Below, one piece after another: positions 7,904 to 49,088 of a stretch of 64,000 bases of DNA. The notes under the pieces are model-generated. The model did not search any database and was not told the origin of the DNA. It saw only the letters and a list, made by a program, of their open reading frames with translations. Source of the DNA: a virus; the IMG/VR virus record IMGVR_UViG_3300020420_000008, positions 1-64,000 of that record; one strand, written 5' to 3'. A program made the translations under genes and the position numbers. The first letter of the stretch is position 1; every line of letters begins with the position of its first letter.

Positions 7904-8068
7904 ATGAAAAAAGATTTAAAAGAATTGATAAAAAAGATAAATGATCTTGGTGATGACTTTGACAATATGTCAAGTGGTGGCAAGAAATGCTATAACGAGA
8001 TTCAAAAGAAATTACATACGCTAATACCAAAGATTGCAGAAGCTATCGATTTTTATGAGGATGCCTAA
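7904..8068 (+). CDS. Early hypothetical protein, 54 aa (not in ORF track)
   Basis: MKKDLKELIKKINDLG...FYEDA*, directly after cassette B1. Confidence 0.7.
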   Translation: MKKDLKELIKKINDLGDDFDNMSSGGKKCYNEIQKKLHTLIPKIAEAIDFYEDA

Positions 8069-8070
8069 TT

Positions 8071-8244
8071 ATGTCATGTATACACAATGAAAATTTAAAA
8101 GAAAATATTATGAATGAGATACTAGAGATGAATGTTGGTGACTTTATTGAAACTTTGTATGAAAAAGGTTTCGCAGAGACACTTAAAGTAGACTCAGCAA
8201 TTACAAAACTAGTAGAAGAAAAATTTGAAAACTTAGGAGATTAA
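8071..8244 (+). CDS. Early hypothetical protein, 57 aa (not in ORF track)
   Basis: MSCIHNENLKE...ENLGD*; GAGG upstream. Confidence 0.65.
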   Translation: MSCIHNENLKENIMNEILEMNVGDFIETLYEKGFAETLKVDSAITKLVEEKFENLGD

Positions 8245-8246
8245 GT

Positions 8247-8450
8247 ATGATAGATTATGAAGCATATCGTTTTTTTGAGAACGAAGACGGCATGAAAGAA
8301 CTTGCCAAAGAGATGATAAAGAAAAACACCGACTTAGCAAAGTCTTTGCAGTTTGAACTCAACGCTCAGTTACAAGATAAAGAAATAGCTGAAGGTTCAA
8401 TTGATTGGGACATAAAAGTTCCTGAAGTAGAATATAAATTCGATTGGTAA
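8247..8450 (+). CDS. Early hypothetical protein
   Basis: AGGAG RBS. Confidence 0.7.
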   Translation: MIDYEAYRFFENEDGMKELAKEMIKKNTDLAKSLQFELNAQLQDKEIAEGSIDWDIKVPEVEYKFDW

Positions 8451-8461
8451 AGGAGAATAAT

Positions 8462-8689
8462 ATGTTTATAGCAAAACCATCTCTAAATAATAATATTGGT
8501 GTTAAAGAATTTGAAGACATTCACGATGCTATTAGCTATCTTGAACAAGCAACAGGTTATGAAATGTCTTTTGAATTAGATCGCAAAAAGAAAAAGAAAT
8601 TAATTAAAGAAGGTATGTCTTCTCTTGAGGCAAACGAACTTTCTAAAACCTACGATTGGGAACTAATTGGAAAGTTGATAAGAAAGTGA
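8462..8689 (+). CDS. Early hypothetical protein
   Basis: AAGGAG RBS before ATG 8462. Confidence 0.7.
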   Translation: MFIAKPSLNNNIGVKEFEDIHDAISYLEQATGYEMSFELDRKKKKKLIKEGMSSLEANELSKTYDWELIGKLIRK

Positions 8690-47754: not shown

Positions 47755-47772
47755 AATAAATAAAAAAAGTAC

Positions 47773-47804
47773 TTGACGAATCACGAATCAATATGCTATA
47801 AATA
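47773..47804 (+). promoter_or_regulatory. Promoter of the RNA cluster with tandem CGAATCA and an overlapping late promoter
   Basis: TTGACG; CGAATCA at 47777 and 47784; TATAAATA 47797-804. Confidence 0.75.
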
Positions 47805-47807
47805 AAG

Positions 47808-48146
47808 AGTTCGTTGAGACTAAGATGAAACTAGACTGGACATGGGGGCGGTACCCATCACCTCCACCAAGAGTACTTGCTCAGTACAACGCCTTCGTAG
47901 CTTCACAAGAGACAGTTCTTGAGACAGTTCGATGAAGACAAGAGTGGTAAGACACTTTAGAGTTTTTTGATAGTGGCGTATCAACAAGTATTCCTGTGGG
48001 GGTGAAATAGGATCGACAGGTAGGTAGTAGGTTAGTGGAGAACATTAAACTAAATGCAAACGATGATTTTGCACCTGTGGATTACGCACTAGCGGCTTAA
48101 TCGCACCGAGTTTAGAGAGTGTACTTGGGAACAGAAACACTCTCAC
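47808..48146 (+). ncRNA. ssrA: Circularly permuted two-piece tmRNA (alphaproteobacterial type); outer ends approximate
   Basis: Acceptor piece ends CACCTCC-A-CCA (47869); coding piece starts GGGGGTGAAATAGGATCGAC (47998); G3.U pair; tag ANDDFAPVDYALAA* at 48056-48100. Confidence 0.92.
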
Positions 48147-48153
48147 AGAATTT

Positions 48154-48227
48154 GCGAGTGTAGTATAATGGCATTATTTCTAGTTACCAACTAGAAGACA
48201 GAGGTTCGAATCCTCTCATTCGCTCCA
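48154..48227 (+). tRNA. tRNA-Gly(ACC)
   Basis: GCGAGTG/CATTCGC acceptor stem, TCTAG-TTACCAA-CTAGA anticodon arm, AGAGG-TTCGAAT-CCTCT T arm, U73, encoded CCA; 74 nt. Confidence 0.88.
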
Positions 48228-48229
48228 AG

Positions 48230-48458
48230 TTTTACTCCGACGGGAGTAAAAGTGGTGCAAGGAAGAGTCCTGATGACAAGAGGGACAAACTTGACTACTT
48301 AGGGGTGGTACCCAGGATTTGAAAAACGAATACTTAGAAATAAGGGCTAGTTTAACAAGTTCACATCATCATACCAGATGAAAGTAGGTTCTGGCATAAA
48401 TGGAAGATATGCTATCTTGTGATGTCAGTTGAGGGTAAAAGCGAGTCCCTCCCACACT
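48230..48458 (+). ncRNA. Unidentified structured RNA
   Basis: No ORF in track, multiple stems, lies between the tRNA and a terminator. Confidence 0.6.
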
Positions 48459-48464
48459 AAATTT

Positions 48465-48500
48465 AAAAAGGTATTAGAAGCAGTTCTGATACCTTTTTTT
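48465..48500 (+). terminator. Rho-independent terminator
   Basis: AAAAAGGTATTAGAA-GCAG-TTCTGATACCTTTTTTT. Confidence 0.85.
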
Positions 48501-48502
48501 AT

Positions 48503-48510
48503 TATAAATA
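48503..48510 (+). promoter_or_regulatory. T4-type late promoter
   Basis: Intergenic TATAAATA. Confidence 0.7.
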
Positions 48511-48593
48511 CTAGTAGATTGTATTATATCATTACGTATCGTGACATTTAAGATTGTTTCATTATAATCGTTTTAATTAGTCAAGGTAAAGTA

Positions 48594-49088
48594 ATGATAG
48601 ATCCAATATCAGCAATGGCTGTAGCAGGCACCGCATTCTCAGCAATCAAGAAAGGCATACAACTAGGTAAAGATGTAGAGTCTATGTATGGTGATATAGG
48701 TAGATGGATGGGTGCAATCTCTGATGTTAATCAGGCAGAGAAGAATGCAAAGAATCCGCCATTCTATAAAAAGGTGTTTAGTGGTTCATCGATAGAAGAA
48801 GAGGCTATGAATGCCTTTGCCGCCAAGAAAAAGGCAGAGGAGATGGAATATGAACTGAAACAATATATTATGTTTACACATGGGGCATCTGCATGGGACG
48901 AACTGATTCGTATGCAAGGTAAGATACGTAAAGAACGTCAAGAGATGATTTATGCAAGAGAAAAGCAAAGAGAAAAAATAGTTAATATTATCATATGCAC
49001 TATAGGTATAGGAATTATAGTAGCACTACTAGGTTGGTTCGCATGGTTCGTTTTTCAAACAAGTTACTTATTCGCAGGCTTTCGCTAA
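48594..49088 (+). CDS. Membrane-anchored hypothetical protein
   Basis: MIDPISA..A..AF..IKKG, C-terminal TM. Confidence 0.75.
   Translation: MIDPISAMAVAGTAFSAIKKGIQLGKDVESMYGDIGRWMGAISDVNQAEKNAKNPPFYKKVFSGSSIEEEAMNAFAAKKKAEEMEYELKQYIMFTHGASAWDELIRMQGKIRKERQEMIYAREKQREKIVNIIICTIGIGIIVALLGWFAWFVFQTSYLFAGFR

Follow-up and report, generated by a model that had tools for sequence, protein, structure and literature searches.

The window analysed here is a stretch of 64,000 nt, positions 1 to 64,000 of the 146.6-kb virus record IMGVR_UViG_3300020420_000008. The RNA features found at the locus, together with the gene that follows them, are:

47773-47804, plus strand: promoter-like site of the RNA operon, upstream of the tmRNA (TTGACG, 18-nt spacer, TATAAATA), read from the sequence; putative function
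47770-48145, plus strand: permuted two-piece tmRNA of the alpha-proteobacterial type with tag ANDDFAPVDYALAA (RF01849, 89.1 bits; RF04321, 85.3 bits; ARAGORN)
48154-48227, plus strand: tRNA-Gly (anticodon ACC), CCA encoded at 48225-48227 (ARAGORN; RF00005, 60.7 bits)
48230-48458, plus strand: manA RNA (RF01745) with nine helices (cmscan, covariance model R1, covariation)
48465-48504, plus strand: intrinsic terminator with a 15-bp stem, a 4-nt loop and a T-run (hairpin 48465-48498, -16.3 kcal/mol)
48541-48568, plus strand: promoter-like site for the next gene (GTGACA, 16 nt, TATAAT; 11/12 matches); putative function
48594-49088: ORF of 164 aa, the gene after the terminator

The site upstream of the tmRNA combines a sigma-70-type -35 box with a T4-late-type box, TATAAATA, and was not listed by the consensus scanner because its -10 box ends in A. 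The combination of TTGACG and TATAAATA suggests both early and late expression of the tmRNA operon.

From the tmRNA to the terminator no ORF was found, and the lone promoter-like match, an unconvincing one, lies within the tmRNA-tRNA junction; coding in 48230-48458 is limited to a 40-aa chance ORF touching the 3' end. The manA RNA begins 2 nt past the CCA of tRNA-Gly. The simplest reading of this arrangement is that tmRNA, tRNA-Gly, manA and terminator form an RNA-only operon with manA as its third gene, which suggests that manA is an independent RNA gene rather than a switch for the protein gene next to it.

The initial annotation had described 48230-48458 as a discrete structured non-coding RNA, located behind a tmRNA and a tRNA and followed by a strong terminator. 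Its position was confirmed by the coordinates of the neighbouring features (47770-48145, 48154-48227 and 48465-48504), and its structured nature by folding: the minimum free energy of 48228-48462 is -68.3 kcal/mol, versus -53.2 +/- 4.3 kcal/mol for dinucleotide shuffles (z -3.5), and 0/200 shuffles were as good. The same annotation held that no family could be assigned and proposed a comparison with Rfam by Infernal. This comparison returned a known family, RF01745 (manA RNA), so that the RNA can no longer be called unidentified.

The match was obtained by cmscan with Rfam 15 at 48233-48460 on the plus strand, with 68.0 bits against a gathering score of 55.2, and covers the full model (positions 1-192 of 192). 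Searching the window gave an E-value of 3.6e-15, and searching the region alone gave 5e-17. In the opposite direction, covariance model R1 was built solely from the clade of the window phage (alignment A2, 11 IMG/VR contigs), its structure being the fold of the Rfam alignment mapped onto the clade sequences. With filters off, R1 recovered manA at the published coordinates (Table S7 of PMC9964418) in all 11 of the 11 cultured cyanophages fetched, namely S-CREM1, P-SSM2, P-SSM4, P-HM1, P-HM2, P-RSM4, P-SSM7, S-SSM5, S-SSM7, MbCM1 and P-RSM6, with E-values of about 2e-7 to 3e-12. The window site scores 274 bits with R1 and is the sole copy in the virus record. The RNA at 48230-48458 is a clear member of the manA family.

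Searches based on primary sequence had a shorter reach. A blastn search of the region against cultured phages gave matches in its tmRNA and tRNA only; the manA of S-CREM1, used as a blastn query, matched ACG-2014f only, and iterated nhmmer reached the close clade and no further. BLAST misses manA relatives because their primary sequence is too divergent. A first motif pattern run on viral contigs gave 11 matches that R1 did not match; a second pattern yielded L199 and L225, probably by chance, as well as the variants L200/L218 and L214.

The nine helices of the window copy, with their pairing strands, are:

P1, 48230-38/48243-51, plus strand: TTTTACTCC/GGAGTAAAA
P2, 48252-55/48452-55, plus strand: closing helix, GTGG with CCAC
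P3, 48259-61/48290-92 and 48267-71/48282-86, plus strand
P4, 48295-300/48382-87, plus strand
P5, 48302-04/48311-13, plus strand
P6, 48315-21/48356-62, plus strand: with an extension tipped by GAAA at 48337-40
P7, 48366-70/48377-81, plus strand
P8, 48391-97/48422-28 and 48404-07/48415-18, plus strand
P9, 48431-35/48447-51, plus strand: GAGGG/CCCUC

The architecture is thus that of manA: a 5' hairpin, the closing helix, P3, a four-way junction formed by P4-P7, then P8 and P9. All 58 of the 58 mapped pairs are standard pairs.

When the clade was aligned by MAFFT, blind to structure, paired cells made up 92.5%, versus 37-52% when the partners were slid, and both sides had changed in 19 pairs, across P2, P3, P4, P6, P7 and P8. 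A wider alignment of 27 sequences, 24 of them distinct, gave 91.1% of cells paired and 55/67 pairs with both sides changed; these observed values were reached by no shuffle, and the sequences were fitted to the model, a procedure that favours structure. The formal pair counts exclude the copies of Prochlorococcus phages, whose loops were parsed by script. For the family, 48 significantly covarying pairs have been reported (PMC7779021).

Nine stems had been proposed for this RNA from the sequence alone. Judged by the Rfam alignment and the covariation counts, five were right: TTTTACTCC/GGAGTAAAA is P1, GTCC/GGAC belongs to P3, the GGGT/ACCC hairpin (GGG..CCC) is P5, CTTA-GAAA-TAAG is the tip of P6 and GAGGG/CCCTC is P9. 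One, AGTGGTG/CACACT, joined the correct partners in a shifted register, the supported P2 being GTGG 48252-55 with CCAC 48452-55. The other three (CCAGA/TCTGG, GCATA/TATGC and AACTTGAC/GTCAGTT) were wrong, since they clash with P7, P8 and P4, all of which carry compensatory changes.

The likeness of GGGGTGGTACCC to the T-arm of the tmRNA, also pointed out at that stage, is real, with one base different in 13 nt. A tRNA or tmRNA ancestry of this hairpin was rejected, as no tRNA or tmRNA model matched inside the element: nothing of clan CL00001 was found in 48230-48460, and ARAGORN and Rfam place tRNA and tmRNA at 47770-48227 alone. The likeness is no evidence of ancestry because the GUGGUR loop occurs family-wide, including in copies far from any tmRNA.

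Four loops of the window copy deserve separate description:

L5, 48305-48310, plus strand: GUGGUA, its UGGUA complementary to UACCA of L7
L7, 48371-48376, plus strand: AUACCA
L8, 48408-48414, plus strand: UAUGCUA, its UGCU at 48410-13 complementary to AGCG of L9
L9, 48436-48446, plus strand: UAAAAGCGAGU, with the AGCG core at 48440-43

All the conserved loop motifs of the family are present, that is, GUGGUR in L5, ACCA in L7 and an 11-nt L9 closed by GNGGG/CCCNC; in the window, 48431-51 reads GAGGG-UAAAAGCGAGU-CCCUC. UGGUA of L5 and UACCA of L7 can form 5 bp, and UGCU of L8 with AGCG of L9 only 4 bp, one of them G-U.

Across the family the L5/L7 columns are nearly invariant and 76% paired in the wider alignment. 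The L8/L9 cores differ between lineages: GCU:AGC in the window and L008 groups, GGU:ACC in L013, L171 and L015, CUGU:ACAG as the cyanophage consensus, UUGUC:GACAG in S-CREM1 and CUUU:GAAG in the S-SSM7 group. Duplexes of each lineage's own L8 and L9 had a mean energy of -4.26 kcal/mol, versus -2.05 +/- 0.55 kcal/mol with permuted partners (p about 1e-4; 11 lineage classes, which amount to about 4-5 independent blocks, and 100,000 permutations). These values support covariation of the L8 and L9 cores across lineages, in which intramolecular and intermolecular pairing would look alike. No L8-L9 complementarity was found in the lineage L165/L184, and ACC of L7 is lost in the clade member L012.

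A preprint of July 2026 reports that manA RNAs form RNA-only pentamers, which build decamers or a 60-subunit T=1 cage visible by cryo-EM; that the pentamers are held by L5-L7' and L8-L9' kissing loops; that another member uses an L6 GNRA-receptor contact alongside L5-L7' plus L3-L8'; and that the cages arose in vitro at high RNA and Mg concentration (bioRxiv 10.64898/2026.07.01.735769). To judge from its loop sequences, the window manA keeps both complementarities that serve as kissing loops in the cage-forming member. A complement between L3 and L8 was not seen by eye in the window copy.

Compared with canonical manA, the window copy shares all nine helices, the GUGGUR L5, the ACCA L7, the 11-nt L9 (UA...GU) and the GNRA tip of P6. 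It is nevertheless divergent, scoring 68 bits versus 120-173 bits for cyanophage copies: J2/3 reads GUGCAAGGAAGA and not GUGACUGAAUAA, there are about 26 additional nt in P6, and the core of L8:L9 is switched to GCU:AGC. It also differs in its setting, an RNA-only operon with its own terminator in place of a 5' UTR.

The window phage is a marine, T4-like phage. Its gp32 is 56-59% identical to cyanophage gp32. The type of its tmRNA, alpha, suggests that the host is an alphaproteobacterium, and the window showed no genes for photosynthesis; taken together, the two indicate that the phage is probably not a cyanophage. The manA family would thereby be extended to a phage outside that group.

In the close clade, defined by a downstream protein 73-96% identical to that of the window, the tmRNA is followed by manA in 13/13 distinct contigs. 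The two RNAs either lie close together, with manA no more than about 10 nt from the 3' hairpin of the tmRNA, or are separated by tRNA-Gly, which is present in just 4 of the 13. What follows manA varies: some contigs have a terminator there, others additional RNA-like sequence, and others an ORF that has been inserted. In the window's subgroup, the hairpin and T-run of the terminator are kept in 8/8 contigs with changed sequence, and wherever a clade contig has the terminator, the promoter-like block of the next gene (48541-48568) is conserved too. Among 20 loci of remoter relatives (downstream protein at most 73% identical), tmRNA and manA occurred together in L015 (73%) alone; the 19 relatives at 59% identity or less had neither at the locus.

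In the clade members L013 (2278-2420) and L012 (627-770), about 130 nt of hairpin-rich, non-coding-looking sequence lie between manA and the next terminator. The extra sequence of L013 matched no Rfam family; it could, in both contigs, be a further small RNA. In three other members of the clade, L014:1936-, L015:1893- and L171:1938-, the terminator is replaced by an ORF of 115-121 aa that lies 10-25 nt past manA and has the conserved start ..YDSWNGVMN..RNPL...

For the family as a whole, the genomic context was analysed at 56 loci, collected from manA-internal motifs, flanking-gene synteny or published coordinates. The settings fall into tRNA/tmRNA operons, operon ends before terminators, and positions between protein genes. 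Direct contact with tRNA genes, at -4 to +2 nt and on one or both sides of manA, is seen in the subgroup of the window and in several further lineages:

S-CREM1: tRNA-Leu before manA, tRNA-Asn after
S-SSM7 group: tRNA-Gly after manA
L196/L211: tRNA-Thr before manA
L204: tRNA-Thr before manA, tRNA-Asn after
L208/L217: tRNA-Ala before manA, tRNA-Asn after

A copy enclosed by tRNAs cannot be a 5' UTR, and the ends of such copies coincide with RNase P and tRNA 3'-processing sites. The tmRNA-tRNA-manA order of the window is repeated in L217 with a different type of tmRNA, and in L169 an alpha-type tmRNA is followed by a divergent manA.

In L217, a cyanophage-like IMG/VR contig, a cyano-type tmRNA, a tRNA, manA (123.6 bits) and a second tRNA lie end to end at 7911-8551. 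The divergent manA of L169 (14234-14458, minus strand) and L180 (366-590) scores 58.8 bits, and its P3 is interrupted by about 70 inserted nt; in its junction region, ACCA and UGGU are 3 nt apart and, as seen by eye, might form a local hairpin instead of two loops.

In Prochlorococcus-type phages, manA follows gp23 (four cases), pstS, pebS, regA or ferredoxin. Many cyanophage copies are located 8-45 nt ahead of an ORF, with neither tRNA nor terminator, so that a cis role elsewhere in the family is possible. The genes found downstream in the different lineages, among them gp32, purL, talC, tRNAs and unknowns, have no common function.

In 2010 manA was rated a probable riboswitch in potential 5' UTRs (Weinberg et al. 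2010, PMC2864571), and it has stayed an orphan candidate ever since. In the window, such a cis-regulator would sense a metabolite or condition and control whether transcription passes the terminator and enters the 164-aa gene at 48594. The succession of aptamer, intrinsic terminator and gene has the layout of classical attenuation, and an ORF begins 8-45 nt past manA in L014, L015, L171 and many cyanophages. However, no antiterminator or expression platform and no competing helix overlapping manA were seen. When the 5' arm of the terminator was blocked, the fold and energy of manA were unchanged and nothing replaced the hairpin; the best manA-terminator duplex reached -6.9 kcal/mol, versus -16.3 kcal/mol for the hairpin itself. 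The terminator is autonomous.

The gene order also speaks against a switch, as a promoter-like site stands between terminator and gene, and the neighbours upstream of manA are RNA genes and not a promoter. The window copy does not lie in a 5' UTR, the position expected from the Rfam type 'Cis-reg', a trait that comes from the family annotation and lies outside the model. At the level of the family, the lack of anything in common among the downstream genes and the copies enclosed by tRNAs weigh against this role, as does the formation of large homo-oligomers (bioRxiv 10.64898/2026.07.01.735769), and no ligand has been known or reported in 16 years (PMC2864571; PMC9964418). Overall we regard a riboswitch in the window as quite improbable.

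We consider it likely that the window manA is a stand-alone, tRNA-punctuated, self-assembling stable RNA. From its sequence and surroundings we infer how it may be processed, stabilised and assembled in vivo. The RNA would be co-transcribed with the tmRNA and the tRNA. Its 5' end would be freed by the enzymes that trim the tRNA 3' end, since 2 nt alone separate CCA from P1, and its 3' end would be set by the terminator. The product would then be a stable RNA that works free of any mRNA, rather than a switch in a 5' UTR. Copies may bind each other through UGGUA of L5 with UACCA of L7, UGCU of L8 with AGCG of L9 and possibly the GAAA tip of P6, after the other members described in the preprint, and this loop-loop binding would lead to closed particles based on pentamers. 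As to what such particles do, scaffolding or the sequestering of a host or translation factor are guesses.

The linkage to tRNA and tmRNA genes could also mean that manA is a partner of the translation RNAs, for example by using its invariant UGGU loop to bind ACCA 3' ends, or by tuning trans-translation. T-box and RNase P RNAs bind CCA ends, and the ACCA with which the tmRNA acceptor piece and A73 tRNAs end is complementary to UGGU of L5. Furthermore, manA often abuts tRNAs, and three separate lineages, with two types of tmRNA between them, have manA after the tmRNA (the window clade, L169/L180 and L208/L217). Many copies, on the other hand, have no tmRNA or tRNA nearby, for example those after gp23, pstS and regA, and in the solved assemblies L5 is occupied by L7'. 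The linkage may merely reflect a shared strong stable-RNA promoter and the use of tRNA-processing enzymes, and Methylophilales phage Melnitz carries a glutamine aptamer in the same slot. This role is therefore rated as unlikely.

In many contexts manA lies between genes or where a transcript ends, and in four cyanophages it directly follows the highly expressed gp23. Such locations would suit a 3' stabiliser that protects or punctuates a polycistronic transcript and has no activity of its own. Such a passive function is, in our opinion, very improbable, given that about 200 nt with nine helices, invariant loops and covarying loop partners exceed the needs of a stabiliser hairpin, and that in the window the terminator hairpin already provides structure at the 3' end.

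The self-assembling stable RNA that we prefer can be combined with the tRNA and tmRNA linkage in a bolder proposal, which we hold to be speculative and rather doubtful: RNA-only manA particles made by the phage, from pentamers up to cages and matured by host tRNA-processing enzymes, might act with the tmRNA and tRNA set of the phage; their invariant UGGU/ACCA loops might serve to catch ACCA 3' ends, or else a factor of the host's RNA processing or defence. If this were true, manA particles would be an RNA compartment or sponge for translational takeover and not a gene switch.

The manA family was already known, and its cage has been reported as the first natural RNA-only icosahedral cage (bioRxiv 10.64898/2026.07.01.735769); what is contributed here is the evidence from context and from loop covariation. 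The window manA is encoded like a stable RNA of the tRNA type, in that it appears to share a promoter with tmRNA and tRNA, abuts a tRNA end and has its own terminator. Punctuation by tRNAs and linkage to tmRNA recur in unrelated phage lineages, and the loops reported to hold the particles together appear to covary in nature. These three features are arguments for no longer classing manA as a cis-regulator and for treating it as a processed RNA gene.

The position of the window manA resembles that of the T4 species 1 and 2 RNAs (rnaC and rnaD), stable RNAs without a known function that likewise close a phage tRNA operon at its 3' end. The analogy with T4 drawn in the initial annotation holds in detail: in T4 (L229:2909-3248; AF158101 70908-71247), tRNA-Arg is followed at 1 nt by rnaD, and rnaD at 6 nt by rnaC, compared with the 2 nt between tRNA-Gly and manA in the window. 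The T4 RNAs are shorter than manA (119 and 139 nt), and homology was rejected, the best R1 match being 3.1 bits (E 0.24) with no shared Rfam family.

According to the text of the preprint, on which this comparison rests, ROOL, GOLLD, OLE and raiA are, like manA, ornate non-coding RNAs that are often borne by phages or mobile elements and self-assemble through loop-loop contacts (bioRxiv 10.64898/2026.07.01.735769). They are large RNAs, whereas manA is far shorter (about 200 nt) and its pentamers build up decamers or a 60-mer.

Judged by its tmRNA, the cultured phage closest to the window phage is Melnitz (Melnitz-1, MZ577095). There, no manA was found after the related permuted tmRNA, which is directly followed by a glutamine riboswitch aptamer (RF01739, 52.8 bits; L227:2603-2651), an unrelated 50-nt fold with a known ligand in the slot of manA. 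The sole annotation in the 266-nt gap that holds this aptamer is a 34-aa reverse ORF.
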